Origin: an uncultured bacterium
Lineage (GTDB): Bacteria > Patescibacteriota > Minisyncoccia > UBA6257 > 2-01-FULL-56-20
NCBI GenBank assembly: GCA_963844965.1
Contig: CAWJQC010000006.1
Coordinates: 1 to 64,000, forward strand
Direction of reading: 5' to 3'
Length of the DNA: 64,000 nt
Part shown: piece by piece, positions 1 to 60,048 of the stretch
How the letters are laid out: every line of letters begins with the position of its first letter
Position numbering within the stretch: position 1 is the first letter of the stretch
The notes under the pieces: generated by a model
Told to the model about the DNA's origin: nothing
The model's database searches: none
Seen by the model: the letters and a program-made list of their open reading frames with translations, nothing else
Made by a program: the position numbers and the translations under genes

Positions 1-172
1 CCAGTTTCTACCACATCAACCCGTTGCTGGCCTGACTCAATGTTTGAGATATGCGACTGAGGGCGGCCGATTTTTTTGGCCGCTTGCACTTGAGTGAGCC
101 CGGCTTCTACGGCGGGCCTTTCGGAGACGCTCCACCATATAGGCATATTCCCTCGTCTGGATCGATTTCATA
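1..172 (-). CDS. XRE-family HTH regulator, partial (runs off the window start); inverted copy of 3201-3419 with an indel
   Basis: Reverse complement of 1-230 matches 3190-3370. The mirrored start codon (cat) is at 170-172. Confidence 0.35.
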
Positions 173-372
173 CCTTTTCACGCTATATCCAAGAAAACTA
201 ATATCCAAATATTGGATATTGTGATATTTTTTGGAAGGGTTGGTCTGGCACAATTTGATGCTTCCCGTGGCGGTTTGTTTTTCTTGTCCTCTGGACTTCC
301 ACCACCGCTCAGTCATCAATACCGTCGGGTTATCCCGAAAGGTCGAAACAGAAGACAAATAAAAAAACATGA

Positions 373-1040
373 GTGCATTTTTTGTATTTTCTGTCATTTG
401 TAGCCCTAGGTGTTGAAATCCGCTGGACCGTGAAACCTGTTGATCCCTCAAGCAGCAGACCCGTGGGAAAGTGCTCCTTTGGTACGGTGGGGCATTCCTT
501 CTTCTCTGTTCTCATCGGCGTGTCTTATCTGTTGTCGCCTAGGGCACCCAGCGTCCGTGGCGAACACTACATCGAAGTTCTTGCTCGAAGAGGGAACAAG
601 CCCCGTCCTGCCGCAGCCGTCCCCAGTCGGAGCCCGGGGTCTCAAATTTTGCAGGTCTGACTGACTCCAGTTGAAGAGACCGAATCCAAAACCACAAGCC
701 CGCGTCTGCGCCGCAACGCAATGACTCACCCTGCTCCAGTCTTGAGGCTCCAACTCCAACTCCCGGCTCTTGTACCTACACCTGTGCAGCCGCAAACCGT
801 CTGATATCTGGGAGTACCCCAAACATAAATCCACGCAGACGTTTACCGTGGGGAGTAGCTGGCAGATGACCTGGAGCTATGACCGCTCGACCTTCGGTAT
901 TTTTCTCGGGGGAATTTCCAGGTGTACATTAACACCGCAAACATGTATTGCCCTCGTTCGACAATACCGGCGTGAACCAGCTCGGCGCGTCCTGGGATCG
1001 GAGACGGACTATTACCACACTGCTGGGAGCTATTATTGAG
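373..1040 (+). pseudogene. Degraded copy of a small secreted Pro-rich protein (mirror of 2322-3006)
   Basis: ORFs 373..660 and 770..1039 share the signal-peptide-like N-terminus (FLSFVALGV) and the C-terminal motifs QTFTVGSSWQMTWSYD / TDYYHT with the right-arm gene, but carry multiple indels. Confidence 0.35.
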
Positions 1041-1302
1041 CGGTGAAATTCAGAGGGGGAGCCTGGCACATTGCAAGGCTAAGGGTTAAGGGAGTCGCGG
1101 CACGATCCAATCCTCAATTGAACGGGATTTTATCTGTTTCTTGCTCCGACTAAAAGAGTTGTGCTTTTGCGGAATGCAATGTATTGGGCCTTACAATTTT
1201 GGTATGCTACCGTCTTAATCGCCGCGCATCTAATCTCTCTCTCTCTCGAACCGGCCGCGCCGGTTCGAGTCCCCTCGAATACCTACTAATCCTTAAGCCA
1301 GA

Positions 1303-1690
1303 AGGAAATTCGTCTTTCAGGTTTCTGAGCAAGCTCTCGTTGTATTACCGTGCGCTGAGCATTCCAGTGTACGAGGCGAATAGCTCTGTTCGGTTGGATT
1401 TGCGTCCAGGGCCCGATATTTCGCCTTGTGTTTGCGGTTCGCAAACAACGACCATGATCGGGAAAGTGAACCCATCCAAAGAAGTCGACGCCGGAAGCGA
1501 AGCTCTCAATAAAAATCTTGTCCGGATGAAGGAAAAGCTTGAGCCGTATATCGCCAAGAAATCCGTCAATGTGCGGCATCATGCTTTCCAGATAGTTTTT
1601 GTCACGGGAAAAGAATTGCAAAATCGTCGGCATATCGAAGATAGTATTGTACCTTCATCCCGCGTTTTATGAATTGGTCGAATTCATTCA
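1303..1690 (-). pseudogene. Reverse transcriptase, 3' portion only (motif C onward), left-arm copy
   Basis: YLRYADDF (YADD motif), LKLFLHPDKIFI, GVDFLGW thumb motifs; a frameshift sits ~1440. There are no RT domains 1-4 upstream; the gene is cut at the palindrome centre. Confidence 0.5.
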
Positions 1691-1695
1691 TATAA

Positions 1696-2122
1696 ATGTT
1701 CACTTCGCAACTTCTTGTGAACATTTATATGAATGAATTCGACCAATTCATAAAACGCGGGATGAAGGTACAATACTATCTTCGATATGCCGACGATTTT
1801 GCAATTCTTTCCCGTGACAAAAACTATCTGGAAAGCATGATGCCGCACATTGACGGATTTCTTGGCGACGGCTCAAGCTTGCCCTTCATCCGGACAAGGT
1901 TTTTATCAAGAGCTTCGCTTCCGGCGTCGACTTCCTTGGATGGGTTCACTTTCCCGATCATCGTGTTTTGCGAACCGCGAGCAAAAAGCGAATGTTTCGG
2001 GGCCTGGACGCAAATCCAACCGAACAGACTATTGCCTCGTACGCTGGAATGCTCACGCACGGTAATGCAACGCGACTTGCTCAGAACCTGAAAGACGAAT
2101 TTCCCTTCTGGTTTAAGGATTA
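1696..2122 (+). pseudogene. Reverse transcriptase, 3' portion only, right-arm copy (DGR-type C-terminal signature)
   Basis: QYYLRYADDFAIL ... (frameshift ~1870) ... LKLALHPDKVFIKSFASGVDFLGWVHFPDH ... IASYAGMLTHGNATRLAQNL, then a stop at 2120-2122. Confidence 0.5.
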
Positions 2123-2137
2123 GTAGGTATTCGAGGA

Positions 2138-2175
2138 CTCGAACCGGCGCGGCCGGTTCGAGAGAGAGAGAGAGT
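2138..2175. other. Perfect 11-bp GC hairpin (ctcgaaccggc/gccggttcgag) followed by (AG)7, immediately 3' of the RT stop; mirrored at ~1190-1272
   Basis: Seen directly in the sequence. Confidence 0.5.
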
Positions 2176-2321
2176 AGAATGCGCGGCGATTGAGAGACGG
2201 TAGCATACCAAAATTGTAAGGCCGATACATTGCATTCCGCAAACACAATACTTTTTGTCAAAGCAAGAACATGAGAAAATCCCCGTTCAATTGGGGATTT
2301 TATCGTGCCGCCGGAACTACA

Positions 2322-3006
2322 CTAACCCTTTACCGTAATGTGCCAGCTGCACTCTGAATTCACCTCGAGATAATAGCTGCCACCCGTGTGGTAATAGTCA
2401 GTATCCGATCCAGACGCGCCGAGCTGGTTCACGCCGGTATTGTCGAACGAGGGCGATCCGTTTGCGGTGTTAATGTACACCTGGAAATTCCCCCGATTCC
2501 CAAAGGTCGAGCAGTCATAGCTCCAGGTCATCTGCCAGCTATTCCCCACGGTAAACGTCTGCGTGGGTCTGCGTCCGCTACCAGAGATATCAAGAACGGT
2601 TTGCGGCTGCACAGGTGTAGGGGCGGGAGCGGGAGTTGGAGTTGGAGTGGACTGGAACAGGCTGCGGCGTTGGTTGCGGCGCAGGCGCGGGCTGTGGTTT
2701 CGGCATCGTCTTTACAACTGGAGTCAGAGAGTCCCGCGAAACCGGCTCAGGGCTCGGGGTTGAGGACGGCTGCGCGGCAGGGGCTTGTACTTCTTGCGCA
2801 GGAGCCGATGTCGTGTTCGCCACGGGCGCTGATGCCGTCGGCGACGACGGATCGACACGCCGATGATAAAGAGAAGAAGGAATGCCCCACCGTACCAAAG
2901 GAGCACTTTCCCACGGGTCTGCTGCTTGAAGGATCCACGGTTTCACGAGTCCCACGATTGCAACGCCTAGGGCTACAAATGACAGGAGTCCGAAAAATGC
3001 ACTCAT
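2322..3006 (-). CDS. Small secreted or anchored protein: signal/TM segment, Pro-rich linker (PKPQPAPAPQPTPQPVPV), ~95-aa C-terminal domain; candidate DGR target
   Basis: ORFs 2590..3120 (start at MSAFFGLLSFVALGV, 3006) and 2322..2612 are joined by a 1-nt frameshift. It lies convergent with the RT fragment. Confidence 0.45.
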
Positions 3007-3200
3007 GTTTTTTATTTGTCTTCTGTTTCGACCTTTCGGGATAGCTTTCTTTCCAACACCATTGATGACGCAGCGGTGGTGGAAGTCCAGAGGGCAAGAA
3101 ACCGCCACGGGAACCATCAAATTATGCCGGACCCACCCTTCCAGAATATCACAATATCCAATATTTGGATATTGGTTTCTTGGATATAGCGTGAAAAGGT

Positions 3201-3419
3201 ATGAAATCGATCCAGACGAGGGAATATGCCTATATGGTGGAGCGTCTCCGAAAGGCCCGCATAGAAGCCGGGCTCACTCAAGTGCAAGCGGCCAAAAAAA
3301 TCGGCCGCCCTCAGTCGCATATCTCAAACATTGAGTCAGGCCAGCAACGGGTTGATGTGGTAGAACTCAAGCGCTTCGCCGCATTGTACGGGAAGAGGCT
3401 GAACTATTTTATAAAGTAA
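3201..3419 (+). CDS. XRE-family HTH transcriptional regulator
   Basis: [25 protein letters not shown] is a classic Cro/C1-type HTH. Confidence 0.75.
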   Translation: MKSIQTREYAYMVERLRKARIEAGLTQVQAAKKIGRPQSHISNIESGQQRVDVVELKRFAALYGKRLNYFIK

Positions 3420-3971
3420 AGTTGTTCCAACCTACGACTCGCTGACGGCTTGGGCGAACATTCCCTTCACTTCTAGCGGTGCAGAATTTGGGCTTACTAA
3501 CCGATAGAGCGGGCGTATCTTATCGTGGAACAACCGCCAGAGCGTATTCGCGTACCATTTCGATCGCGCGTAGTAGTTATACCGTAACAGCGCTCAATGA
3601 TTGTAAGCACCGAGCCTGGGATCAATCTCTTTACCAGCTTCAATCTCATCCTCGAACCAGCTGAGCAGCAGGAAGGTCATGCCTTCGAGCAGATAAAATT
3701 GCTTGCACTGTTCATTAAAGCTAAGGCAAAACTCCGGACCAAAGGCAAAAGGGCACTTTTTGTAGAATTCTCTGTCTATCATTTTAGTGTCATTATTTTT
3801 TACAGGAAATCTCCGCGCGCGAATCGCTCGAAGAAATTTCCGCTTCCTGAGGAATCACCATCTGATGATCGACCGCCGCCATCGAACCCTCCTAGGCGCA
3901 ATCCGCCCCCTCCGGAAGAGTATCCACCGCCCGAACCAAACGATCCGCCGGAACTCTCCCTCCAAGACGGA

Positions 3972-5577
3972 TTACTTTCGTATAAACGCTCCGCCGCGTC
4001 TGAAAGCATGCCATGCAGCCGCTCGCTGTTCATCGGCCCGTCGTCGATGAGCGGCGTGAAGGACGGACGCGAGGAAGGGCCGAGGTCGATCCAGTGGCAT
4101 GACGGGCAGGGTGTCGTCGTCCACATAGCCCTCGATGATCTGCCGCACGGCCGTCGTAAAAGCGTCGACCAGATCGTCGAAGCGCTCCGTCCCGAAGCCC
4201 GTGAGCTGCCGGATGAGTTCTTCCGCCCCGTAGCGCGGGAAGAGGACCTTCCCCGCGTAGAGGAGGTCCGTGCACGACGCGAGGCGCGACCTTTTGTCCG
4301 TCGTCACGTGGATGCCCTTGACCTTGTCGTCGTGGATGCCGTCGCTTTTCAGCTGGTCTACCGCCGCCTGCTGGAACTGGTTGTTTCTATGTCGATCTCG
4401 GTATGGCCGCGCTCTGCGAGCGTGCGGTAGAGTTCCTTCATCCTTGCGATCGTGGCCGGAAAGTCCATCCGGTCGTTTACGATCTGCGGCAGGACGTAGG
4501 CCGTGAATTCTTTGCCGTAGCCGGACACCAGATCGGCACCATCGCCGTTTTGTCGGCGGTCTCTTTTTGCGAAATCGCCAAGTCCGTGCCGATGTGGGTC
4601 GCGCGATAGTGCTCGATCTCCGGCAGCTCGTCGTAGTAGTGAATCATTTCATTGCGCACCACTTAATCTTCGTCTGGCACGATATTAAGAAGGTACTCGC
4701 GCTGCCAGGCGATTTCATTGCCGACCCGCAAGCGTTCCTTGATAACGTCCTTGATGCCCGCGTATTTGCCGGGCCAGAGCACGGTGTCGTTCTCGGCGAT
4801 CAGCGGATACCTCTTGTAGGCACCGGAGCGCTTGCCTTCCTCGATCTCCCGGATGAGCCGCATAAGAAGCGAGTCGTCGTGAAGCAGATTCCAGATCACG
4901 ATGAACCGTGTCGTCTTGTCGCCCAAGGGGAAGATGTTACGCGTTACCCATTCGTAGGTGGCATTCCTTGCCTCCTGGGTACGGACGCTCGCAACATCCT
5001 CACAGTCGTCCAGAATGCAGAGGTCGGGTCGGAACGCGCCGTGTTTGATGCCGCGTACGCTCTGCTCGGCGCTCGCCGCCGTAATCCTCGCGTTGTAGTT
5101 CGGGATCACGAGCGAGAAGGAATTCCAATCGTCCTCCTCGCGGAAGGGGCCGAGGTCGTTCCGCAGGAGCGGGTTGCCGTCCAACTGGTCCTTGATGTTC
5201 CGTAAGTACTGCTTCGCCTGCGCGAGCGTCTTGCCGAAGATGACGACGTGTTTTTTCTTTTGCTTTCCCGTGACCGCCCATATCGGATAGAGCTCCGCGA
5301 AGAGGGTCGTCTTGCCGCTGCCCCTGAAGGCCATGACGATGGCGAGGTCCGACGAATCGCTCTCTATGATCTGGTGCATCTCGTAGTGCATGGGTGCGGG
5401 CGCGTACGACATCCTGTCGGGGAAGTAGCACGGCACGAACCAGCTGAAACTCCGGCCCGTGACGGCGACCCTAAAGTCGCGGTCCGTGAGCATCCGCTCC
5501 AGTATCTTCTTGATCTCATCCGCATTTCCGACTCCGTACGCCGGTACATTACTGTTATTGTTTTGATTTTGTTCCAT
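3972..5577 (-). CDS. Phage terminase large subunit (ATPase + nuclease), split by frameshifts into ORFs 4663..5577, 4477..4662, 3972..4307
   Basis: Walker A AFRGSGKTT, Walker B LCILDDCED, nuclease motifs HIGTDLA and DDLVDAF. Confidence 0.65.
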
Positions 5578-6021
5578 TTTGATTGTTGGTATCCGTTAAT
5601 TTATTTTGACCGTCTTTTTCCTCACCGGAACCGACCGCTTCCGGCGGGGATTTGCCCGCAAGGTAAGGAGCATTGATCAGCGCTCGCTCCACCGCCGCCT
5701 GGAATTCCGCGTTCTCCTCCGGCGTCATAATGTTACGCTTCACGTGGGCAGTAACCTCGACTTTCGTGGCGGTACAGTTCGGATGGTGCTGCCGCAACCA
5801 CAGTTGTACTGCTGGGAAATGTTTTTCCCGTAATTCATCGAGATGAGCTGCGACTTCGACATGTCGGTAAGAACTGCCTCACCTTCGGCGATGGCCTGGT
5901 CGGCCCGCTTCGCAAATTCTTTATCCTTTTCACGCCATTCGTAATAGGTGCTTGATCGGCTTTTGATTGCCGCACGTTCGAGCGCGATTTCGAGGATCGG
6001 CATTTTGCGAAACTCCTCCAA
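5555..6021 (-). CDS. Putative terminase small subunit / phage DNA-binding protein (two overlapping frames)
   Basis: Judged by its position immediately upstream of the terminase large subunit and by its size; no strong motif. Confidence 0.3.
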
Positions 6022-6031
6022 GAGCCGCGCC

Positions 6032-7417
6032 TTATTTTGCGTGATTTCGCCTTGATTGATTTATCCCATTTCCAGCTAGGCATGGATTTTCACGGCTTTT
6101 TGGCCGATCAGCTTTTCTATGCGCCGCTTCGCGACCTCGGCATATATCTCGCTCTTTTCCATCGCATAACACCGTCGACCCAACTTGTGCGCCGCAGCGA
6201 TCGGTGCCACCGCTTCCGCAGAAAGGTTCGACCACGTATCGTCCCTGCGCGTAAGTACCTTGAGGTACTAAATGAACACTTTCACAGGCTTCGTGCCGAA
6301 AATTATCCCTTGCCCGGAGTGCTCTGTCGTCCGCCTTGAATTCAATGAAGTCCGTAGGGCATATCTTCTTGCCCTTCTCATACGCCTCAAATTGGGGCTT
6401 TCCTGGAGGCGGCATAGAGAGCATTCAGATATTCCTGCTGAAATAGCTCCTCGGTTCACGGTGCTATTAAGCGCGACTTTGCCCTTCGTCCCAACGAGTG
6501 CGATGTCGTGTTTGTTAAAGAACTTGTATTTCGCGGAAAATCCCTGGGTACGATCTTGCCCTTCGGAACCTCCACACGATCGTGTCGCGATACCGCCAAT
6601 GTTTTTCCATCGCTGTCCAGATGGTTTGCAAATTCTTCGGGTTCTCAAAGATAATAATTGAGAAGTCCGGTTTCTGAACTTTTGCAATACTCGCCATCCA
6701 GCGGTCGCTCAGTGCTGAATGTTTGTGCCGAGATACCTGTGATTGTGCTTGAGGCCGAACCCTCCGGTCGACTTGCCGCTTTTCTTCTTGCCGCGCAAGT
6801 AATCCAAAATGTACGGCGGATCGGTCAGACACATGTCCGCCTTCTCGCCATCCATGATTAAGCATATCGTCTTCGTTCATGGAATTCCGCATCGGATCCG
6901 CGCGGTTGGATCTGCCAGACCGTTCCTTTCTTGGTTTCTATCTTATTAATTTGCAGCTTCTTTAGCTCTTTCTCGAGGATCGAACACCTCGGGTTGTTCA
7001 TCTACGCCGAAGATTTTGTCCATATCTTCTGATGCAAATCCAGCGTTCTTGAGGATGTCCTCGTTAAAATCCTCTAGCATATTCCAATTCCAATCGCCCT
7101 GATGGATGTTGTCCTTCAAGGCCCACTCTTTCTCCTTGGTCTCGGTGAGCTTTGTAATTATCGTGGGCACGGTCATCATGCCCATCGACTTCGCTGCGCG
7201 AGTACGCATACTGCCAGCGACGACTAGAGCAAGCTTCGCCTGTCCGATTAGAAGCGATTACCGGCGCGCCCGCAGGAATTCGGGGTCGTTCTTGATGCTT
7301 CCGCAAAGCGTTTCGAACCCCATAGATAATTTTGCGTGGATTCCATCGAGGCAAGGTGAGGTCTGCGATTTTTACGTCAGTTGTTATTAAGTTATTGAGT
7401 TTGTTAGATTTTTTCAT
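6032..7417 (-). CDS. DNA methyltransferase (N6/N4 MTase family), fragmented by frameshifts
   Basis: The EPFCGSGGT SAM-binding motif in ORF 6032..6424 and the RYRDTIVW motif in 6515..6892; four overlapping minus-strand ORFs cover the span. Confidence 0.4.
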
Positions 7418-7494
7418 ATTTTGTGAATTATTTTTTTATGTTTACCATCGACCGGGATGGTTTCTGTAAATCGAAAGGTGCCATCCCTGGCACC

Positions 7495-8298
7495 TTAGAT
7501 AACGACTCTTGATTTTGGCAGCGTACACTTTACTGCCCCACTTTGTAACGCGTCGATTCCGTACCCGAAAAGCTTGAGCGCTTCCGCTTTGAGGCGCTTT
7601 TTTATCTGCGCCGCACCGCTCCCCGCGATACCGTAGTCCTCAGCAATGGCTTCCATGGTCGGCCTCTCCGATGCAGATCCGGTAAAACCCTCGCTGATTT
7701 CAATGAGTTCGTTTACAAACGTCAGTTGGTTTCCAATATTTTTAGAAACAGGGGTCGCTTTCAAAACTTCAGCGGGGAAAATGTTCGATTGGACTCTGAG
7801 CAATTCCTCCCTTGCGAAAGCCGTCTCTGCTTCGTCAAGCGGTGCGTATGTGCGAATGCCAACCCACCGGGCCTTTTCTCCAGAATTGACTATTTCGTAT
7901 ATAAAATCCCAATTGGTATTCGGCACCATAAGGTAATCAACGAGAATAATCGCCGATATCCCCATCTGACCATGATAGTAAAGATTAAAGGGCAGCTTGA
8001 ATTTCTTACCGATAGCCATAACACGTTGGTAATACAAATCGGCTTCCGGCGGCGTGAACGGCGGATGATACGACATATTCGTAAACAACGGATGTCCGTT
8101 GGTTTTGAACCATTCGTGAATATTCATATGCCGCTCGAGCCACGTCGCGCCCGGATCTTTTACGGTGCCAAATTCCCTTCTCGCCGCTTCGAGAATCCTG
8201 CGGAATTCTCCGGCAAGACAAAGCAGGCCGAGACGCTTCGCGTTTTCAGCAGCCGTTTTTTTCATCGTTTTCTGCCGAAATGTTTCAATGGTATCCAT
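7495..8298 (-). CDS. Hypothetical protein (267 aa) in the phage-like operon
   Basis: Intact ORF with no recognisable motif. Confidence 0.5.
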   Translation of the reverse strand: MDTIETFRQKTMKKTAAENAKRLGLLCLAGEFRRILEAARREFGTVKDPGATWLERHMNIHEWFKTNGHPLFTNMSYHPPFTPPEADLYYQRVMAIGKKFKLPFNLYYHGQMGISAIILVDYLMVPNTNWDFIYEIVNSGEKARWVGIRTYAPLDEAETAFAREELLRVQSNIFPAEVLKATPVSKNIGNQLTFVNELIEISEGFTGSASERPTMEAIAEDYGIAGSGAAQIKKRLKAEALKLFGYGIDALQSGAVKCTLPKSRVVI

Positions 8299-8301
8299 AA
8301 T

Positions 8302-11300
8302 TTACAGTGCTCTTTCAAAAATCCAGCTTTGCGATCCACGTTTGCCTAATACGATGCGCCCGTCAATAGCACCATCTTTGATTGAATACAACAACCCTGC
8401 ATGGCGCGTCCGCAGACCAAACCAATCCTTGAATTCAAATACGACCGCTAAATGATTCCCGTCCGGCGAGAGTTCCGCGACCTCTACTTTGACCCTATTC
8501 CCAAGAACATCCGATGTCTTACTTTCTATGATATTCCAAGTATCGGACTGATCGGCCTTCCTCCGTACGCCGTTCAAAAGATTATTGAGCGACTCGAGGC
8601 GAACATGTCCGTTCGGTATCGTGTCGGTATATCTGAAATGGATTGGTACGCCCGTAATCTCGCACACTCGGAGATCGTCGGGGTGAGAAGGCGCGCCACT
8701 CCACAGACAAATCCTCGCTTCTTGCGCTGCACAATATTTTCCGTTCATTGACCGTACGGCTTCCTGCTCGAGAATCCGCGCGCCCGAAACGCTGCTCGAA
8801 ACGAAATACCGCTTGAGCGCCTTCGTACCGGACGCAGCCGAGCGCTCGAGTTCCGATGGCAACACTTTTTTCCCGCTTATCTCGCAGCGCTCAAGCAGCC
8901 CCGGCATGACGACCTTCCCCGTTATCTCGCATCGCTCGGCTTCCTCGGGCAGCATCGGCTGCTGCGTTTCGGCGCAGAATACGAATTCCCGTCCGTGGCC
9001 GGTTTTGCCCGAAACCGCCGATCGCAATCCCTGATCCAATCGGTATTTCTTCCCGGAAATTTGGCTGACGGCGAGTTCGGCTTCGAGAGCGTCGCTTCCC
9101 GTGATTTCGCAGACTCGAAGTATTGCGGTTCCGCCCGCTTGCCGCTCACCGCAGAGGTTTTTAAGAGATCCTTCGTCACCATCTTGCCGGTCACTGCCGA
9201 CGGTTCAGCTTCGTCCGAAAGAATATGTTTACCACTGACAGCACAGACGAGGACGTGCTCCGGCAAGGCCATCCGTCCACTCATATCGGATTTCTGAAGG
9301 AGATGACGCAAAGCCTCCGCTCCAGTGATGGCACACTGGCCCAAACAGTTACGTGGGATGACCTGCATCGTCAGAGAACAGCGGCTCATCTCGGGTACCA
9401 TAACGATTTTTTCTTCGGATGGAACGAGGGCAAGGAGGCTTGTATACCCGGCCCCGACTCAAACTGATATGCAACCTCAACGTTCAAGCGTCGGTGTATA
9501 GTTCCTTCCAAGCCGACGACGAGGATTTCGAGGCGCGGCGTGAAGTCATCCTCAATCTTCTTCCGTTTCCGCGGATCACTCCCGGCGGCTTCAAGCTCTT
9601 GCGTCAGTCGGGCGTTATAAAACCGGCAAAACTCCGAAATTCCTTCGTCGGATTTTGCTTTTTCCGAAACGTACGAGGCGTTAATGCCGATAGGTTCAAG
9701 ATTTTCAAGAATATCTGGCAAGCGATTTGTTCCGTTAGGATCAGCTTTGCTCCAGTGCTCGTCGAGTGAAAATGGAATCTCGATAAGACGCTCGTAACTG
9801 TCATGGGTTACCGTCGCGCGGACGCGCACCAATGCGGTGCCCGTAAATGAACGTTGGGCATCGCGAATACGTGAGCGTACGTAGTTTGCGTTGAAGCTTT
9901 TCACCCATTCTTTTGCGATCATCTCTGTTTGCGTGATCACATCAGCATCTCCGTCATCGACACGGTGAAGGCCGTTCCCGGTTATTCGACTGACCAACCG
10001 TCCGAACCGCGACGAGCCCGGCTGGTATGAATCCAAAGACCTTTCCTTCTCGCCCACTCCGACGGCATTGAGCGCGGCGGGAATGAATTGATGCGCTTCC
10101 ATCGAATGGATAACCTCCGGCAGGCGCGGAAATGGAATCTCTCCCGCCCCATCGTCCATTCCGCCAAGCATCGCATCAATATTCTTTTCTTCGCGCTCCA
10201 GTTCGACTTTCGCTTCCGCGATGCTTTTCTCCGCTTTCTTCGTGGCTGTTTCAACATCCTTACCCGCAAGGGAGGCAATCACGAGCTTGCGTATCATTTC
10301 TTCGAAGCCGTCGGCCCCATTCTCTTCTTGTTCACCCATGCCGGACGCTTCGAGCAATGCCTCGATATCACCGATCGCGTGCGAAGCCAATTGCAGCTTT
10401 TCCATGAGTCGCCCCACGATGTATTCTTCGAATGTGCCACGGAGGACGATATTGAAGATGCAGACGTTCGCGTGCTCCGACGCCAATCGCTGGATGCGGC
10501 CGATGCGCTGTTCCACAACCATCGGGTTCCACGGCAGGTCGAAATTCACAAGCACGTTTGCGGCTTGGAGATTGACACCCTCCGCACCAGCTTCAGTGGA
10601 CACGATCACGTGGATTCAGGCGGATTCCTCTTAAGATTGGTTATCGTTTCCTGATTGCGTACGCCCGAATCTCCATTGATGAGCCCGCAGGAGATTCCAC
10701 GCTCGCCGAGGAACGCTTCGATCGTCGTCTGCGTTTCGCGGCGAGTCGTAAACACGACTGCCCGCCAGTCGTCGGGATTCTCGGCTCTTAGTTTGTCAAT
10801 GAGCGTTCCTAGGCCGCGCAGCTTCGCCGTTAATATTATCCGACTCACCACCTCGTGAACATCCGCCGCGAGCGATTCTGGAATCGTTTTGTGCAGGGCC
10901 ATGCCTCTCAGCTGCGCATCAAGCGCATGCGGGCTACTGATGAGCGCTTGGAGGATAGATATCTGCGCGAGGCGATTCAATTTTTGAATGGGTTCGGCAA
11001 TGAGATTGATAAGCTCAAGTTCCTCCGGCGTTGGATCAACGTGGTGCATCTGCACGATGCGTTCCGGGAAGTGGAGGTTGGCATCGGCGCGGCGGATGCG
11101 CGACATATAACCGTACACGATGGAACGGAACTGATCCTGCATCGCAGGATTCAAGCGACGAGCTTCCGTCCGGTTGTCGGCGATGAACGTGCGGGCGAAC
11201 ATGCCCGGAACTCCCGAAAGGGTTCTGATGGCCGCGGGCGACCGTGAGGAGGTCAATGAGGGAATAGATGTCCCAAAGGCGGTTCTGAATCGGAGTCGCC

Positions 11301-11930
11301 GTGAGCATGAGGACGTACTTGAATGTCCGGTCTGCCAATGCTTTTTTGAATCGTTGTGCGACTTGCGGCGCTTGGTCGGTACCGTAGAGATTGCGGAGTT
11401 TATGGGCCTCGTCGAGAACTAGCATATCGAAACCCACGGGAACGAGCGCGTCGAGATATATCCGCGCGGAGTGATACGTCGTGATTACCACCCCACCTTC
11501 TTCCGGCGGCTCAACATCAGCAAGATCCTTACCTGTCGCGATAACCGAGGGAATGCCAAACTTGGTATCAAGTTCTTCTTGCCATTGCGGCATCAGAAGC
11601 TTCGGGCAGACGACGAGGATTTTCGCGATGCGGTGCCGCGCCATAAGCTCGCTCATAACCAGACCGGCACTTATGGTTTTCCCTAAGCCCACATCGTCAG
11701 CGAGGAGCGTGAACAGGGAGCCTGCGGCAGAACGCAATCAGATTTTTCACTTGGTGATGGTACGGCTCGAGCTTGTCCCTCCATTTCGCCTCTGACTTGA
11801 GATCGTCCCGATCCCTGATAAGGATCGGCTCGATAAGATCCCACTCAAGCGCCGCGCGGTACAGTTTGTACGCGTTTGGGTCAGACGTTTTTCGTAAGCT
11901 CTTGCTGTGAAGTTGGGGCTGATTGTCCAT
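8302..11930 (-). CDS. SNF2-family helicase with a long C-terminal repeat region, split into six ORFs by frameshifts
   Basis: Motif I DDVGLGKT, motif II DEAH (LVLDEAHKLRN), helicase C-domain QRIGRIQRLAS. The C-terminal part (8302-9401) carries ~22-aa repeats of the form C(E/A)I(T/S)GK...L. Confidence 0.6.
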
Positions 11931-11937
11931 GGGAAGG

Positions 11938-13419
11938 TTAGTCGGTTATTTGATGTAGCGCTTTCCAAATCGTGTACATCGCGTACGAATCCGTACCGCA
12001 ATATTTTTTCAGCGCTTCGCGCAGCCTTTCGGACTCGGCACCGTTGAGCTCGCCCGAAGCGATTTTCAACCACGTGATCGCCGCCGTCCCGCCCTCACGA
12101 ATATCGAGTTCCTTGTAGCTCAGCTCCGGCGCGAGGACGGGGAGGACATTTTTAATGGAAACCTTACCCCACAAATCTTTATGGACGTAATACTGCTTCG
12201 AAAAAATATCCATGAGATCGTAGATGCGGCTGTTAAAGTCGGTCATGAATCCTTGGAGGTCGGGAATCCTCGCAGCGATGGCTTGATTGATGCTCGACTC
12301 GAATCTTTTATTCCAAACGATGATGGTTCCCTTTGGTCCGATGTACTCTTGGAGCGACGCCGCAAGTGGGCGGCTCGGATCCTCCATGGTGGTACTCAAA
12401 AATTCTTTGTGAATCGGCTCTTCGCCGGGAGCGTTCACGATATGCAGGGAATATTGAAACGGAACGTGGTGATACGGCGAATAGCCGTCGAAGAGCGGTA
12501 TCGCGGACGGATAGGTCTCGTAGTCAATGAAATAAAGTGGGAAGGCCAGTGTTCCCAGCTCTGTCGCGATTTCCGCCTTGCGTGCCGTAGTTCCGGAATT
12601 GAACGCGCGGATCTGCTCCTGCTGGATCTCGCTCAGTCCGATGTGCGTCGGTATCTTGTCCAGCCCGAAAATTCCGGCGTCCACCATCTCTTTCAGCTTT
12701 TTGGGACTATTTCCGATGCGGGCAATGTCATGGACGCCATATTCCGGCACCTGCGGATTCGAATATTTGAAGGTGCTACAGTGCCGCGAGCGACCGCGAT
12801 AAATGCAAATGCAGAAGCCGGGCGGCTCCTTGTCGCTCGACAAATATGCCTTCGCCTCCTCCATCTCTTTTGCCACTACCGACGCGACCTCCTCCACCTT
12901 TACCGTCATGTCGGCGTTGATGAAAAGTTTTTCGAGATCCAACGGCCCAGATCGCACGTATTCGGGATTGAGATGGGTAATGAACGCCTGGTCGATTTTC
13001 AAGCCGCAGCGACGGAGCAATAATACCTGAAACGCGAGGTCGTACAAATGCTCATCCTTCGGCTTCGTTGAAGACTTTATTTCATAGATGATATAGCCGC
13101 CAGTAGCGTTGTTATATTTGAGGACGTCTATCGCAGCCAAGAAGCCATCTTTCTCAAGGACTGGTTGAAAGAGAATGGGCGTCTTCGCGGCGAGAAGTTG
13201 CGCCGTTTTTGCTTGCGCGGCAGCATCCCGGCCCTCGATCAAAATGCCGTCTGGGAAAAGCCCATGGGCGATATCCTCGACTTCGTTGCCGCTTTCCATC
13301 ACGGCTCTATCGAATTCACTCAGCTCGAGGGTGCTATATATGTCCGGCTTGTGAATCCTAATCCACGCGTTCTTCGGACATTCACGCCAGATGATGTAAT
13401 CGGTTTTCGATAGGGCCAT
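11938..13419 (-). CDS. Cas4/RecB-family PD-(D/E)xK nuclease with Fe-S cysteines and a DUF2779-like C-terminal half
   Basis: An N-terminal Cys (WRECPKN) plus the CICIYRGRSRHC cluster, IYEIKSS (the catalytic K region), and a C-terminal FIDYETYPSAIP motif. Confidence 0.55.
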   Translation of the reverse strand: MALSKTDYIIWRECPKNAWIRIHKPDIYSTLELSEFDRAVMESGNEVEDIAHGLFPDGILIEGRDAAAQAKTAQLLAAKTPILFQPVLEKDGFLAAIDVLKYNNATGGYIIYEIKSSTKPKDEHLYDLAFQVLLLRRCGLKIDQAFITHLNPEYVRSGPLDLEKLFINADMTVKVEEVASVVAKEMEEAKAYLSSDKEPPGFCICIYRGRSRHCSTFKYSNPQVPEYGVHDIARIGNSPKKLKEMVDAGIFGLDKIPTHIGLSEIQQEQIRAFNSGTTARKAEIATELGTLAFPLYFIDYETYPSAIPLFDGYSPYHHVPFQYSLHIVNAPGEEPIHKEFLSTTMEDPSRPLAASLQEYIGPKGTIIVWNKRFESSINQAIAARIPDLQGFMTDFNSRIYDLMDIFSKQYYVHKDLWGKVSIKNVLPVLAPELSYKELDIREGGTAAITWLKIASGELNGAESERLREALKKYCGTDSYAMYTIWKALHQITD

Positions 13420-20906: not shown

Positions 20907-22349
20907 ATGAGATATTTTATCTACACAAGGAAATCAACCGAGAGCGAGGACAGACAGATGATGTCGCTGGAATCGCAGCTGAACGAGCTGAAAGAATTTG
21001 CCGTCAAAGAAAAACTTGAAATCGTCGCTTCGCTGAGCGAAGCGCAAACCGCCAAAGAACCAGGGCGAAAGATTTTTGCAGAAATGCTTGATCGGATTTG
21101 CGCAGGAGAGGCCGACGGAGTTTTGGCTTGGCATCCCGACCGATTGGCCCGCAATTCGATAGACGGCGGAAAGATTATATATCTCTTGGACACAGGAAAA
21201 ATCAAAGACCTCAAATTTCCGACGTTCTGGTTCGACAGCACGCCGCAGGGGAAATTTATGCTGAACATGGCCTTTGGACAGAGCAAATACTATGTGGACA
21301 ATTTGAGCGAGAATATTAAACGAGGACATCGAGCAAAACTAAGAAAAGGAATTTGGCCCGGCTTCGCCCCGCTTGGATATCTGAATAATCCAAAAACAAG
21401 GGCTATTGATGTTGATAGCGAAAGAGCACCGATTATTAGGAAAGCGTTTGAACTTTACTCAATCGGCGAATATACCCTGAAAGCCCTTGCCAAAGTTTTG
21501 GAACAAGCGGGACTAAGAAGCCATAAAGGCAATATTCTTGTCGTTGCCTGTGTCCAGCGACTTTTGAAGAATCCGATTTACTACGGCGTATTCTCTTTCA
21601 ACGGTGAAGTATATGACGGAACGCACGAGCCTATTATTTCCAAGAAACTTTTTGATTCTGTTCAACAAGTGATGAGCAATCGAGGAAAGAAGCAACGAAA
21701 ACGAAAACACGACTTTGCTTTTTCAGGATTTATGCGTTGCGGAAAGTGCGACTGCCTTATCACCGCCGAAACGCAGAAGGGACACACCTATTATCGTTGC
21801 ACCAAGAAAAAGCAAACTTGCAATGAAAAGTATTTGCGCGAGGAAGTTCTTGTTGAACAGATGAAATCCGTCATTCAAAAAGTTTCAATTCCCGACGACT
21901 GGGCGGACAATATGCTTGCCGAGATAGACCGAGAGAAAGAAAGCATACAAAACGAGGGCTTTGTTTTTGTCCAAAATCTCAAAACGCAGAAAGTGGAAGT
22001 TGAGCAGAAAATAGATCGCTTGCTCGATATCTACATTGAGGGTAAGGGCATATCGCCCGAAGAATATCAGGACAAGAAAGCGAAATTGCTCAACGAGAAG
22101 GGCGACATCGAGCAAAGAATTAGAGATTTTGGGCAAAAGGGAAATAACCGGCTCGAACTTATCCGAGAAGTGATTTTACAGAGTAGCCAAGCCAAAATTG
22201 TTTTATCGCAGGGCGATAAAAAGCAAATCCGCGAATTTCTCAAAAATGTCGGCTCGAACTTTACTCTTAATGCGAAACGGCTTGAAATTTCCCCACAAAA
22301 CGGCTGGCGAGCCCGACTGCAAGGCGAGCCATTTCTTAACTGGCGGTGA
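20907..22349 (+). CDS. Large serine recombinase 1 (resolvase catalytic domain + recombinase domain + Zn ribbon + coiled coil)
   Basis: YTRKST...R (catalytic Ser region), AWHPDRLARN, CGKCDCLITAETQKGHTYYRC. Confidence 0.85.
   Translation: MRYFIYTRKSTESEDRQMMSLESQLNELKEFAVKEKLEIVASLSEAQTAKEPGRKIFAEMLDRICAGEADGVLAWHPDRLARNSIDGGKIIYLLDTGKIKDLKFPTFWFDSTPQGKFMLNMAFGQSKYYVDNLSENIKRGHRAKLRKGIWPGFAPLGYLNNPKTRAIDVDSERAPIIRKAFELYSIGEYTLKALAKVLEQAGLRSHKGNILVVACVQRLLKNPIYYGVFSFNGEVYDGTHEPIISKKLFDSVQQVMSNRGKKQRKRKHDFAFSGFMRCGKCDCLITAETQKGHTYYRCTKKKQTCNEKYLREEVLVEQMKSVIQKVSIPDDWADNMLAEIDREKESIQNEGFVFVQNLKTQKVEVEQKIDRLLDIYIEGKGISPEEYQDKKAKLLNEKGDIEQRIRDFGQKGNNRLELIREVILQSSQAKIVLSQGDKKQIREFLKNVGSNFTLNAKRLEISPQNGWRARLQGEPFLNWR
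22265..22348. repeat. IR arm P' (inside the recombinase 1 3' end; its stop codon overlaps the core)
   Basis: Inverted copy of 20797-20880. Confidence 0.85.
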
Positions 22350-24860: not shown

Positions 24861-24986
24861 AGATAGAAACTTCGCGTTCGGACAGAGCCGCGCCGCTGTG
24901 CGGCGCGGCAGAGTGGGCGGGCAAGAAATGCCGCCGCGAAGCGGCGAATTGGCTCGGCGGGGGGAATCCGAAATGCGGGGATTTGG
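24857..24986. repeat. IR arm S (~130 bp), perfect inverted copy of 26408-26535
   Basis: Direct comparison. It lies 26 bp upstream of the recombinase 2 start. Confidence 0.85.
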
Positions 24987-25011
24987 CTCTTGTTTCAAAT
25001 CCAAGAACTAT

Positions 25012-26420
25012 ATGAATATCAAACCAAAATATTTTCTATACGCGCGTAAGAGCACCGAGGACGATGACAGGCAAATCATGTCCATCGAGGCACAGCTTTT
25101 TGAGTTGCGGGAGATCGCGCGTAAAGAAAATCTTGAAATTCTTGAGGAATTTCAAGAGTCGAAAAGCGCAAAGACACCGGGGCGCGAAATATTTGGCGAG
25201 ATGATGCGCCGCGTAGAAGAAAGCGATGGTGTTGGTATTTTGGCGTGGCATCCCGATCGATTGGCGAGAAATAGTATTGATGGCGGGCGCATCATCTACT
25301 CTGTTGATACGCGCAAGATCGTTTCTTTGCGCTTTCCGACATTTTGGTTTGAACCAACCCCGCAGGGGCTCTTTATGTTGCAAGTGGCGTTCGGGCAATC
25401 TAAATATTATTCGGACAATTTGAGCGAAAATATCAAGCGCGGCATCCGCCAAAAATTGCGTCGGGGCGAGTGGCTCAATCGTGCGCCCTTTGGCTATCAA
25501 AATAACCCGCGAATTCGCAATATCGAGCCGCATCCAGACAAACGCGCGTATTGTGAAATTGGCGTACGAGGAATACGCCAAAGGGTCGCATACGCTGATT
25601 TCGTTGTCGCAATTTTTGGCGGACTTGAATGTGGTTACTTCTCACGGAACGCCACTTGCCAAAGTTTCCATCAAACGACTGCTGACACATCGGGTATATA
25701 TTGGCTTCGTCAAACATGGTGCTGAATGGTTTGATGGAAACTTTGAGCCGATTCTAACTCCCGCATTGTTTGAAGCCGTGCAGAGGGTTGTGGCGGGCAA
25801 GGAGCGGCCGCGCACGCGCAAGGTGAAGCATGATTTTCCACTTGTCGGCCTCTTTCGCTGTGGCGAGTGCGGCGGCATGATTTCCGCGCAGTGGGCAGTC
25901 AATCGTTGGGGTACAAAATATCGCTACTATCGCTGTTCTAAAAAGCACGGCCGTTGCTCGCAACCGTATGTGCACGAAGGCCGAGCTTGCCGACAAGATA
26001 CGGCACGGCTTCAAACAATCTCGCTTTGCGATCGCTATACCGATTGGATGTTGACGAAAGTGAAAGAGTGGGAGCGCGAGGAAGTTGGAGCGTCGCAAAG
26101 CGAGGTTCAAAATCTTTCCGCAAGTATCAAAGCGGACGAGGAGCGCATGGAAAAGCTAGTTTCCGCGTATCTCGATGGCGATGTACCGAAAGCAAATTTA
26201 TCTTGACCAAAAAAGATACGCTCATGCGCTCTCTCGCCGCTTTGCGGGAAAAATTGAAAGATTTTGAACGCGGGAGAAAGAATTGGGTCGAACCCCTGCG
26301 GGAATGGATTTTGGATTTGAAACAAGCCGATTTTTTGTCCCGTTCGAATGATTTGTACCAAATCAAGCAGTTTGTACAAAAAATCGGAACGAACCCTATG
26401 GTTCGTGCCAAATCCCCGCA
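25012..26420 (+). CDS. Large serine recombinase 2 (paralog of 20907-22349), two frameshifts (~25530, ~26190)
   Basis: YARKSTEDDDRQIMSIEAQ, AWHPDRLARNSIDGGRIIY, CGECGGMISAQ...YYRCSKK. The C-terminus IKQFVQKIGTNPMVRAKSPHFGF is homologous to the recombinase 1 C-terminus and lies in arm S'. Confidence 0.7.
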
Positions 26421-26535
26421 TTTCGGATTCCCCCCGCCGAGCCAATTCGCCGCTTCGCGGCGGCATTTCTTGCCCGCCCACTCTGCCGCGCCGCACAGCG
26501 GCGCGGCTCTGTCCGAACGCGAAGTTTCTATCTGC
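26408..26535. repeat. IR arm S' (abuts the tRNA-Ser 3' end)
   Basis: Inverted copy of 24857-24986. Confidence 0.85.
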
Positions 26536-26619
26536 GGAGGGGGAGGGATTCGAACCCTCGATACCTTGCGGCATACACGCTTTCCAAGCGTGCGCACTAG
26601 GCCACTATGCGACCCCTCC
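26535..26619 (-). tRNA. tRNA-Ser (anticodon GGA), type II with a long variable arm
   Basis: Manual fold: acceptor GGAGGGG/CCCCTCC, anticodon stem CACGC/GCGTG with loop TTGGAAA, T-arm GAGGGTTCGAATCCCTC. Confidence 0.8.
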
Positions 26620-26791
26620 TTATCAACCAAAATCTTACAACTTAAATTTTAAATTTTCCAATTTTTAATTTTCAAACCGACACCGCCTGTAATGCCTTAA
26701 TCCTTTCTTTAATCCCTGCCTGCCGGCAGGCAGGGATGCGCCTCTACGTCGCACTAGTGCGCCGAGGAGGCGTAATGCGACCCCTCCGAAA

Positions 26792-30922: not shown

Positions 30923-31294
30923 GTGGATGATCTAAATTCAACGCAAAACCAAATGAGACTAGGGATAAAGATTTCCGCTGTTCTGTCGCTGATTTTACCG
31001 TTCGTCGCCTCCGCTCAGCAAAATGTTCCGCCGCCGATGACCGATATATCGGGGTTCGTCGGGCTTATCTGCACCGTGGTTAACTGGCTTTTCACCTTCC
31101 TCATTGTTCTCACGATCCTCTTTATCATCGTCGCGGCGTTCATATACGTTACCGCCGGCGGCGATCCCGAAAAAGTGCGTGGCGCCACGGGTTGGATAAT
31201 TTATGCGGTGGTAGCGATTGTGATCGCAGTCCTCGCTAAAGGTATTCCTTTGATTATCGGCAGCTTCCTTGGCGCTTCGTTCACCGGCTGCTAA
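30923..31294 (+). CDS. VirB2/TrbC-like pilin-family small membrane protein
   Basis: GGDPEKV...IIYAVVAIVIAVLAKG...GASFTGC; paralog of the 59.7-61.7 kb cluster. Confidence 0.55.
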   Translation: MDDLNSTQNQMRLGIKISAVLSLILPFVASAQQNVPPPMTDISGFVGLICTVVNWLFTFLIVLTILFIIVAAFIYVTAGGDPEKVRGATGWIIYAVVAIVIAVLAKGIPLIIGSFLGASFTGC

Positions 31295-31316
31295 AAACTG
31301 CCGCAGCGGCAAAAGC

Positions 31317-59237: not shown

Positions 59238-59319
59238 ATTTTGCCGGTGCCGAGGGTGGGATTCGGACCCACAACCCTTTCGGGACAGCGTCCTAAGCGC
59301 TGCGCGTATTCCATTTCCG
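59238..59319 (-). tRNA. tRNA-Leu (anticodon TAG), type II
   Basis: Manual fold: acceptor GCCGAGG/CCTCGGC, anticodon stem CAGCG/CGCTG with loop CTTAGGA, variable arm with a CCC-GAAA-GGG hairpin, T-arm GTGGGTCCGAATCCCAC. Confidence 0.7.
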
Positions 59320-59636
59320 CCACCTCGGCAAAATTTAGTGCGGTGTTCCGCCACCGCGACATTTGCGCGGGGATGAACCTGCCTACCAGCAAGCAGGCCC
59401 GCCAACCTGCCCGCACCGCTCCCATCACTGTTTATCTTAAATCCCGCCATCGTTTTATTCAACAACACGGCAGAATTCCGCAACGCCCATAAAAATGCCG
59501 GTGAGATAAAGCTCCATGGGCTTACCTGCGCTTCGCCGAGGCTGCGGCAAGGCGAGCGCCCGTGGTATCTGGAAGCTTTACCCCGCCCCGACCGCGGTCG
59601 GGGCGGGGTATTCAGCGGGGATTTAATATAAAAAAC

Positions 59637-59683: not shown

Positions 59684-59706
59684 GATTTAATCTCTAAATC
59701 AGAAAT

Positions 59707-60048
59707 TTAGCAGCCGGTGAACGAAGCGCCGAGGAAGCTGCCGATGATCAGAGGAACGCCCTTCGCGAGAACGGCGATGACCACGGCGACTACGGCGTAG
59801 ATAAGCGTGCTCGAAGCGCCCTTAACCTTCTCCGGATCGCCAGAGGCAGTCAAATACTTGTAGGCGGCGACGAGTATGAAAACAATCGCCAAAACGACGA
59901 GAAGCGTGAAAAGCCAGTTGACGGCGGTGCAGATAAGCGCGATAAATCCGGTTAAGCTCGTAACGGTCGTCGGCGCTGTCTGTTGGGTCCCGCCACAAAA
60001 GGCAGGGTCAACCCCAAAACCAGCGATTTTATTGACTTCATGTTAAGA
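59707..60048 (-). CDS. VirB2/TrbC-like pilin-family protein (frameshift ~59960; the N-terminal signal peptide is in another frame)
   Basis: C-terminus SGDPEKVKGASSTLIYAVVAVVIAVLAKGVPLIIGSFLGASFTGC; the upstream frame encodes MKSIKSLVLGLTLPFVAG and ICTAVNWLFTLLVVLAIVF. Confidence 0.55.

Follow-up and report, generated by a model that had tools for sequence, protein, structure and literature searches.

Does the large palindrome that opens this window (the whole stretch of 64,000 nucleotides analysed here, from an uncultured member of the Patescibacteria) exist in the genome of the organism, or did it arise after the DNA had left the cell? The 3.4-kb imperfect palindrome described in the initial annotation is present in the sequence, far above chance expectation. 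A repeat search and a global alignment delimit two arms around a 13-nt loop (Table 1), and 1500 of the 1736 columns of the arm-to-arm alignment are identical. Beside the loop, the central 153 bp of each arm (1551-1703 and 1717-1868) differ by one 1-nt indel only, and as single-stranded DNA the positions 1540-1880 have a folding energy of -201 kcal/mol (z = -41). The hairpin at 1669-1753 that had been taken as the centre exists, but it is merely the core of this far longer stem. Rfam returned nothing but sub-threshold "miRNA precursor" matches at the palindrome centre and at the hairpin that follows the reverse transcriptase (RT) gene; these matches are of the generic long-hairpin type, and a known RNA was rejected for both positions.

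As annotated before, both arms contain an XRE regulator gene, a gene for a Pro-rich membrane-anchored or secreted protein and an RT fragment, which the open reading frames and Pfam confirm. The 3' ends of the latter two, given earlier as about 200 bp apart, are separated by 199 bp between the RT stop at 2123 and the secreted-protein stop at 2322. In the left arm every open reading frame is broken, and in the arm alignment it falls 55 nt short of the gene set of the right arm. It ends at window position 1 and holds nothing beyond the content of the right arm, and no unique sequence flanks it on its left side in the window. By our estimate, a window boundary would fall inside a given 1.7-kb arm with a chance of about 3%. 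Exact 40-mers had no match in viral, genome and metagenome collections, and the exact XRE and RecA proteins were likewise unmatched.

Table 1. Coordinates of the features at the palindrome and of the neighbouring terminase gene.
Feature	Position	Strand	Remarks
Left arm	1..1703	-	Error-rich reverse-complement copy of 1717-~3365 (right arm); cut by the window start
XRE regulator, left-arm copy	1-171	-	Frameshifted; gene truncated by the window start
Secreted-protein gene, left-arm copy	369..1060	+	Multiple frameshifts; both invariant Cys replaced; C-terminal strand destroyed
RT fragment, left-arm copy	1286..1721	-	About 9 internal indels
Single-copy loop TTCGCAACTTCTT	1704..1716	+	Genuine RT coding sequence T-S-Q-L-L of motif 4; continuous with the right arm
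RT 3' half assigned to the DGR clade, right arm	1699..2123	+	Motif 4 'TSQ' through motif 7 and C-terminal tail; Pfam RVT_1 E=1.3e-8
GC-rich hairpin CTCGAACCGGCGCGGCCGGTTCGAG followed by (AG)7	2138..2174	.	Hairpin 2138-2162, (AG)7 2161-2174; between the convergent RT and secreted-protein genes; mirror 1235-1269 (hairpin 1245-1269, repeat 1235-1246)
Membrane-anchored protein with Pro/Thr/Ala-rich linker	2322..3006	-	C-terminal beta-jelly-roll of ~90 aa (predicted) with two invariant Cys
Operator-like palindrome AATATCACAATATCCAATATTTGGATATTGG	3145..3178	.	Divergent promoter region of the XRE and secreted-protein genes; mirror 195-228
XRE-family HTH regulator, 72 aa	3201..3419	+	Intact; Pfam HTH_3 E=7.8e-13
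Phage terminase large subunit	3972..5577	-	In at least 3 frames; Terminase_6N; phrog_38 256-525 and 644-731 in different frames

The turn of the palindrome lies within the conserved GNLTSQ motif (RT motif 4), and the loop is flanked by TTCAC and GTGAA, an inverted microhomology of 4-5 nt. An adapter as origin of the loop was ruled out, since its 13 nt read TSQLL in the frame of the right-arm RT; homologues read GLPLGNLTSQLLVNIYMNEFDQF at this position. As the fold point interrupts GNLTSQ and the loop stays in frame, the break lies at an arbitrary intragenic point and not at a site-specific structure. Such a point, with a short microhomology and without a biological site, is what a fold-back artefact would have as its junction. 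A palindrome would also result if a linear replicon ended in a covalently closed hairpin telomere and the sequence were read around the turn; long reads across such telomeres give terminal palindromes in assemblies, and the structure does stand at the window start. However, the turn would then lie inside a conserved protein-coding motif and remove the 5' half of the gene, the same contig carries gyrB, recA, ftsK and pnp, and we know of no linear chromosome in the Patescibacteria lineage. We consider a telomere at this place extremely improbable.

What is left of the RT gene are its 3' 141 codons, with the motifs YADD (1786-1797), RLKLALHPDK, GVDFLGW (1923-1943) and IASYAG... (2031-2048). Coding sequence is present only from motif 4 onwards, where the fold point lies, so that the gene is incomplete, and its truncation at the palindrome centre had been recognized correctly. 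RT domains 1-4 had been described as absent; this applies to motifs 1-3 and the LGN half of motif 4, but the TSQ codons of motif 4 are present at 1702-1710 and overlap the loop. Near 1867 a 1-nt deletion shifts the frame of the right-arm RT, and adding one nucleotide makes the frame continuous and colinear with the homologues. The search for RT homologues yielded 1896 sequences (best identity 72%), the closest of which, at 55-72% identity, are mostly from Patescibacteria and adjoin a bAvd gene, and in this identity the fragment resembles the DGR RTs of CPR/Patescibacteria (architecture B3; Wu et al. 2018, PMC5758913). One of these relatives, L001, has a TR/VR pair in which 11 of 11 mismatches fall on TR adenines. 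The best match among solved structures is the 328-aa RT 8ub7 (E=8e-11, against 5e-7 for group II RTs), which we take to be bRT of the Bordetella phage BPP-1, the DGR prototype, and the fragment shares with such RTs the TSQ of motif 4, YADD and the SY.G.L.HGN tail. Group II intron, retron and defence (DRT) RTs were rejected as their NCBIfam matches are weak and partial (58.7 bits against a cut-off of 300). Judged by the conserved TSQ, YADD and tail and by homologues that are DGR by context, the fragment is thus a DGR-clade RT for the part that is present, as had been suggested.

Many RT homologues in the databases are only 138-144 aa long and start with MPLGNLTSQ, a count that the word-based selection of candidates, which may favour short entries, could have raised. 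A natural class of truncated RTs was rejected: the contexts of such entries reveal ordinary DGR RTs whose N-terminal half is present and which have been broken, in L001 by a deletion or frameshift and in two others (L002 and L003) by a TAG codon in frame, in the place of a conserved Trp.

A "DGR cassette", as the initial annotation had it, is not contained in the window, which lacks an Avd gene, a TR/VR pair and the RT 5' half. The RT 5' half with motifs 1-3, which that annotation had proposed to look for, was not found in the 64 kb by tblastn with two N-terminal-half queries, and Avd had no tblastn match in the window either (E > 1). In relatives bAvd lies directly upstream of the RT, so that here it would fall past the fold point. 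The proposed search for a template repeat matching the 3' part of the supposed target gene returned, for 2322-2560, only the other palindrome arm, and there is no TR/VR pair in the window. The arms themselves were rejected as such a pair, as they show no adenine specificity: A occurs in either arm at 2 of the 21 substitutions in this region, and at most 41% of all arm substitutions have A in one arm. That a clean A-to-N pattern was missing had been noted before and is correct. With neither Avd, TR and VR nor a complete RT or a target of C-type lectin or Ig type in the window, the locus differs from CPR DGRs.

The secreted protein had been called target-like, and this did not hold. Its six homologues belong to prophage lysogeny modules, beside integrases or serine recombinases, and an RT was absent from both of the two contexts examined. 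The predicted model of the C-terminal domain (pLDDT 89.9) is a beta-jelly-roll and not a C-type lectin, with the C-terminal jelly-roll of Tk-SP and PPC as best folds (TM 0.58-0.65). A DGR target was therefore rejected, and on this modelling and context the protein is a lysogeny-module protein of prophages with a predicted PPC/CBM-like beta-jelly-roll. Its right-arm gene has one frameshift in the linker (~2640-2655); the earlier view that the right copy is comparatively intact and the left degraded is correct, except that all three left-arm genes are degraded and not this one alone. The hairpin with (AG)7 after each RT stop is indeed present and mirrored, and within the window it is confined to the two arms. 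A homing role, as it had been considered, finds no link to homing here, and L001, the one relative checked at this position, lacks the element behind its RT stop. An intrinsic terminator was rejected, as a terminator scan gave no call and a U-tract is missing.

The arms are not identical, as had been stated, and the kind and place of their differences carry most of the argument. They amount to 114 substitutions (61 transitions and 53 transversions) and 69 indel events, that is 0.6 indels per substitution. The indels are mostly of 1-2 nt (44 of 69 of a single nucleotide), and in 48 of the 69 events, with 86 nt, the extra bases are in the left arm, which thus has a net insertion; 20 of its 30 single-base insertions duplicate a neighbouring base. 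Only 3 of 18 differences in the RT are synonymous. Where the arms differ, the right one has the residue that is commoner among homologues in nine cases and the left one in three for the RT, and in nine and two cases, respectively, for the secreted protein. Changes in the left arm hit alignment columns with no or almost no variation among 120 RT homologues (L of GVDFLGW, K, R and M are substituted), and both invariant jelly-roll cysteines as well. The RT fragment of the right arm has two internal indels and one frameshift, and its conserved columns are unaltered. Apart from error, concentrated in the left arm, the two arms would be the same, and their differences look like sequencing noise.

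The initial annotation took the non-identity as an argument against a chimera and saw two diverged mirror cassettes; the one-sided damage, the error-like spectrum of short indels and the noise elsewhere in the window speak against both. Here the pnp gene is spread over three frames, with matches to the PNPase model at positions 2-541, 545-602 and 638-688, one break being a homopolymer deletion from GGGCCCGG to GGGCCGG. The motor and gamma domains of ftsK lie in different frames, and frames are likewise broken in the genes for a serine recombinase, an SNF2 helicase and the terminase. Since pnp and ftsK are frameshifted, the assembly carries indel errors, and the terminase neighbourhood is a prophage-like region with such errors; the terminase search gave a single viral-contig match with 42% identity and without an RT. 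Among the close RecA relatives are Paceibacterota MAG contigs of nanopore style, which fits, without proving, such a data source. The assembly is probably of long-read origin.

Had a truncated DGR cassette been duplicated in inverted orientation long ago, with arms that truly diverged by about 7-14% in the genome, selection or gene conversion could account for the uneven spread of the differences. However, the truncated RT would be non-functional in either arm and of no more use in one than in the other, so that natural decay should strike both alike, and it is strongly asymmetric. Decay of bacterial pseudogenes is dominated by substitutions and biased towards deletions, unlike the indel share and insertion bias found here. 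The right-arm RT is also no worse damaged than pnp or ftsK, and the adenine-specific pattern is missing; we regard an old duplication as very unlikely. An assembly path that runs out along the locus of one strain and back along that of a second, about 90% identical one would agree with the metagenomic derivation of these Patescibacteria and with the lack of identical sequences in public collections. A second strain would, however, have kept its open reading frames; in the left arm, dozens of 1-2-nt indels disrupt the frames of all three genes, and invariant residues are replaced non-conservatively, so that we give such a path a very slim chance.

We think it likely that the palindrome derives from a fold-back chimeric long read that extended a contig end in an error-prone assembly, and that the other DGR parts are located outside this contig. 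We infer the sequencing platform, the contig end at window position 1 and the exact chimera mechanism. The single real locus would be the right arm, with the XRE regulator, the secreted jelly-roll protein and the 3' part of a DGR RT gene. A DNA molecule or read would have broken inside RT motif 4, and the strand could have continued on its own complement, either by a snap-back of the 3' end at the TTCAC/GTGAA microhomology that leaves the 13-nt loop, or because one read ran through from the template strand into its complement. The assembler would then have extended the contig by 1.7 kb of reverse-complement sequence from this chimeric read. Such an extension would be backed by very few reads and, in nanopore data, would also be the poorly called second arm of an inverted duplicate, so that the left arm would keep approximately the raw-read error and the right arm ordinary consensus quality. 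The remaining DGR would lie past the contig end; relatives have all of its parts (RT 5' half, Avd, TR and target) upstream of the RT. Whole-genome amplification is known to yield long reads with artificial palindromes, which interfere with assembly (Warris et al. 2018, PMC6218980), and nanopore reads that cross inverted-duplication junctions have low phred scores close to the junction, with bases called wrongly or missed (Spealman et al. 2020, PMC7229812).

A recent fold-back duplication in vivo, in this prophage-like region of a Paceibacteria genome, would likewise explain the left-arm divergence as sequencing noise. Template switching or hairpin-primed repair at TTCAC/GTGAA would have truncated the RT in all or part of the population, and the near-identical central 153 bp would fit a recent event. 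Natural snap-back events share the short loop, the short inverted microhomology and the long arms, so that this reading has the same junction geometry, and base-calling of nanopore data degrades one arm of real inverted duplications as well (PMC7229812). In contrast to natural snap-backs, which have two arms of equal quality and unique flanks, only the left arm is degraded here, whereas a fixed palindrome, which reads would enter from either side, should give a similar consensus in both, and the sequence stops inside the left arm instead of running on past it. Instability in vivo is moreover expected, through hairpin processing of the SbcCD type, for an inverted repeat that is near-perfect over 153 bp and has a spacer of 13 nt. 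We think that a fold-back in the cell is unlikely. If it were real, the RT would be destroyed, the module of XRE and secreted protein duplicated and the 153-bp hairpin persisting at least in a subpopulation. The template switch or inverted duplication that the initial annotation listed as an alternative thus came close, but it most likely took place in the tube or the sequencer.

With the artificial palindromic reads (PMC6218980, PMC7229812) the locus shares a head-to-head reverse-complement duplication at an arbitrary point, a short unique loop, one far less accurate arm and its place at the end of the available sequence of an indel-prone assembly. It departs from them in the uneven error along the bad arm and in the net insertions. 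The arm differences are over-dispersed (index of dispersion 2.7): the 153 bp beside the loop and the outer ~230 bp are near-identical, and the middle differs by up to about 20%. This unevenness was noticed before, but it is not confined to the 3' end of the supposed target gene. Uniform read error does not predict it, and gene conversion in a real palindrome could explain it; the nanopore effect at inverted repeats is described mainly as missed bases, against the net insertions of the left arm. At 1867 there is a 4-nt difference between the arms, and the spacing in homologues is not reproduced exactly by either, which means either an error in both arms at one spot or an ambiguous alignment.

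At face value the locus is an unusual mirrored and decayed DGR, with the risk that two RT pseudogenes, two regulators and two "targets" are counted. Recognition of the fold-back averts false calls of structural variants, pseudogenes and DGR architectures, and flags the first ~12 kb of the contig, and the assembly generally, as indel-prone. The real remainder of the DGR (RT 5' half, Avd, TR and target) is to be sought on another contig, one starting with ...GLPLGN|LTSQ. The phage association of CPR DGRs has been described as essentially uncharacterised (PMC5758913). The biology that remains after removal of the probable artefact is modest: a Patescibacteria genome has an RT assigned to the DGR clade with an XRE gene at ~1.3 kb distance and a terminase nearby, which hints at a phage association of a CPR DGR.

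The window opens with an imperfect palindrome of 3.4 kb, and each of its arms carries three genes: an XRE/HTH_3 regulator, a protein anchored in the membrane whose linker is rich in Pro, Thr and Ala, and a reverse transcriptase (RT) of which the 3' portion is present. The RT fragment is convergent with the gene of this neighbouring protein (right-arm stops at 2123 and 2322). In both arms the RT stop is followed by a GC hairpin and then by (AG)7. When the right arm is aligned globally with the reverse-complemented left arm, 1500 of 1736 columns are identical, with 114 substitutions and 69 indel events as differences, and the innermost 153 bp differ by a single 1-nt indel. As single-stranded DNA, the region 1540-1880 has a computed fold of -201 kcal/mol (z = -41). 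The operator-like palindrome in each arm is probably a binding site of the XRE regulator. The initial annotation had read the structure as two diverged mirror copies of a truncated cassette of a diversity-generating retroelement (DGR). Its description of the palindrome and the genes is accurate apart from three small points: the centre lies in the loop at 1704-1716, the TSQ of motif 4 is present in the RT fragment, and the degradation of the left arm affects all three genes.

Coordinates of features in the window and, where stated, in the contig of a relative
Feature	Coordinates	Remarks
Palindrome arms	1-1703 and 1717-~3365	around 13-nt loop TTCGCAACTTCTT at 1704-1716
Operator-like palindrome ATATCCAATATTTGGATAT	3145-3178, mirror 195-228	divergent promoter region, XRE gene/secreted-protein gene
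Terminase large subunit	3972-5577	split across frames
ParB-like/methyltransferase-like fragment	6946-7209	
SNF2-family helicase	9386-11737	split across frames
DUF2779 protein gene	11938-13419	intact
Inverted repeat pair, segment 1	19267-19365/20715-20813	99 nt, 95%
Inverted repeat pair, segment 2	20797-20880/22265-22348	84 nt, 100%
Inverted repeat pair, segment 3	22343-22572/24631-24860	230 nt, 100%
Inverted repeat pair, segment 4	24857-24987/26407-26537	131 nt, 100%
Internal repeats	33300-38153	in 1617-aa ORF
ftsK	45766-47948	motor and gamma domains in separate frames
Four ~282-nt FN3-type repeats	48945-49853	in 577-aa protein with peptidoglycan-binding domain
pnp	54963-57135	single-copy housekeeping; three frames = PNPase model positions 2-541, 545-602, 638-688
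Tandem ~162-nt coding repeats	61691-62150	in 387-aa ORF
Template repeat, contig L001 of a relative	3976-4092	
Variable repeat, contig L001 of a relative	3493-3609	3' end of upstream gene

The right-arm RT fragment (1699-2123) belongs to the DGR clade, as the initial annotation had proposed. Once one nucleotide is added near 1867, it is a single frame of 141 codons, colinear with its homologues, and it matches Pfam RVT_1. The 1896 database homologues, with a top identity of 72%, come chiefly from Patescibacteria and share the pattern ...GLPLGNLTSQLLVNIYMNEFDQF...YADDF...LHPDK...GVDFLGW...SY.G.L.HGN. Their genomic contexts are canonical DGRs with the accessory protein gene bAvd directly upstream of the RT, and in L001 the template and variable repeats differ at 11 positions, all 11 at template adenines. 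The best match among solved structures is a 328-aa RT (8ub7, E = 8e-11), with group II intron RTs at 5e-7, and the group II, retron and defence RT models of NCBIfam gave only partial matches far under their cut-offs; these comparisons thus do not place the fragment among group II or retron RTs, the outcome that would have spoken against the initial annotation. In related Patescibacteria the DGR RT gene is itself broken shortly before motif 4: in L001 (4490-5417) by a deletion with frameshift that lies between motif 3 and motif 4, and in two further contigs, L002 and L003 (4221-5435), by a TAG standing in frame where a Trp codon is conserved. Several RT database entries start at MPLGNLTSQ. These interruptions and starts may reflect inactivated DGRs, assembly errors or gene-calling.

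The neighbouring protein (right-arm gene 2322-3006, minus strand), which the initial annotation called target-like, has only six homologues in the protein collection, with 59-79% identity. Two of these lie on longer contigs within prophage lysogeny modules, adjoined by a tyrosine integrase or serine recombinase and HTH regulators, and an RT is absent from both contexts. Its conserved domain is modelled with confidence (pLDDT 89.9) as a small beta-jelly-roll that resembles PPC/CBM-type domains, and not as a C-type lectin.

The assembly of the window is demonstrably prone to residual indel errors. One of the breaks in pnp is the loss of a base in GGGCCCGG, a GGGCCC run; ftsK, a serine recombinase, the SNF2 helicase and the terminase beside the palindrome are likewise split across frames. 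The right arm, with about one frameshift per 0.5-0.7 kb, is somewhat above these split genes, and the left arm, worse by a factor of some 30, retains no intact ORF. Where the arms differ, the residue common among homologues stands in the right arm at 9 RT sites and in the left at 3, with 9 versus 2 for the jelly-roll domain. The left arm has lost the invariant L of GVDFLGW, both invariant cysteines of the jelly-roll domain, and a K, an R and an M conserved in 118, 113 and 114 of 120 RT homologues, and of the 11 internal RT indels about 9 fall in it. As a 5'-truncated RT would be useless in either arm, natural decay should have been symmetric. A truly diverged old duplication, a chimeric path through two strains and a hairpin telomere are even jointly very improbable.

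The spectrum of the arm differences looks like sequencing error: the ratio of indel events to substitutions is 0.6 (44 of 69 events single-base), transitions hardly exceed transversions (61:53), and 3 of 18 RT differences are synonymous. Among the single-base insertions in the left arm, 20 of 30 extend a neighbouring base, and this arm has a net gain by insertion (86 nt against 36 nt). The differences are over-dispersed (index 2.7), nearly nil in the 153 bp beside the loop and the outer ~230 bp and dense between. This unevenness could stem from bursty read error or partial polishing, and gene conversion could also produce it in a real palindrome. We regard a fold-back in vivo, fixed or in a subpopulation, as unlikely.

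We think that the mirror cassette is quite probably a fold-back chimera lying where an error-prone assembly ends. The left arm is cut off by window position 1 and holds nothing beyond the content of the right arm, so the palindrome is not seen embedded in unique sequence. By our estimate a window boundary would fall inside a given 1.7-kb arm with a chance of ~3%, and a contig-end artefact would always lie there. The position of the fold point is arbitrary: it falls within GNLTSQ, a conserved motif, the loop belongs in frame to the RT coding sequence (T-S-Q-L-L) and runs on into the right arm, and the sole homology at the junction is a 4-5-nt TTCAC/GTGAA. Artificial palindromic long reads from whole-genome amplification are known to disturb assembly (PMC6218980), and nanopore reads across an inverted-duplication junction are of low quality, with wrong and missed calls around it (PMC7229812). 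Both fit the pattern seen here, but the latter study does not stress an insertion bias such as the left arm shows; this bias and the uneven density of differences are what the chimera leaves unexplained. A long-read source is compatible with the nearest genomes by RecA (80-89% identity, placing the organism in Patescibacteria/Paceibacteria), several of which are long-read-style MAG contigs.

The window contains further repeats. Between 19267 and 26619, four segments abut one another, and each has long inverted repeats of its own at its borders. They join at short GCGGTG/CACCGC-type cores in alternating orientation, and the array stops precisely at a tRNA-Ser gene (26534-26619). Large serine recombinases that are paralogous to each other are encoded in two segments (20907-22349, intact; 24898-26652, frameshifted), and a trypsin-like peptidase and a membrane protein in one; the array may consist of tandem integrative elements or form a multi-inversion system. 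A 249-nt inverted repeat (31047-31295 versus 59706-59954, 73% identity) spans 28 kb, with a tRNA-Leu gene (59246-59329) near its second copy. The repeat-bearing 387-aa, 577-aa and 1617-aa products are probably cell-surface proteins.

The DGR-type RT itself is real, with only its 3' half on this contig. Searches of the 64 kb by tblastn, for which two N-terminal RT halves and two Avd proteins served as queries, found neither the 5' half nor Avd. Within the window, the other arm holds the only second copy of the neighbouring gene's 3' end, and just 2 of the 21 substitutions there have an adenine in either arm. A single dominant architecture has been reported for CPR DGRs (PMC5758913), and since in relatives the RT is preceded by target, template repeat and Avd, the missing parts would fall left of the fold point. 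The rest of the DGR, including the RT 5' half, would thus lie beyond it, and the 3' end of that half would overlap CTCACTTCGCAACTTCTTGTGAACATTTATATGAATGAATTCGACC. On its other side, the palindrome adjoins a prophage-like or mobile region (3420-11800) with the terminase, the ParB-like/methyltransferase-like fragment and the SNF2-family helicase, and ordinary chromosomal genes (nusG, gyrB) follow the DUF2779 gene. The mirror cassette allows no new conclusion about DGRs; what is left as a real point is modest, namely that in a Patescibacteria genome an RT of the DGR clade has a prophage-like XRE/terminase module as its neighbour.
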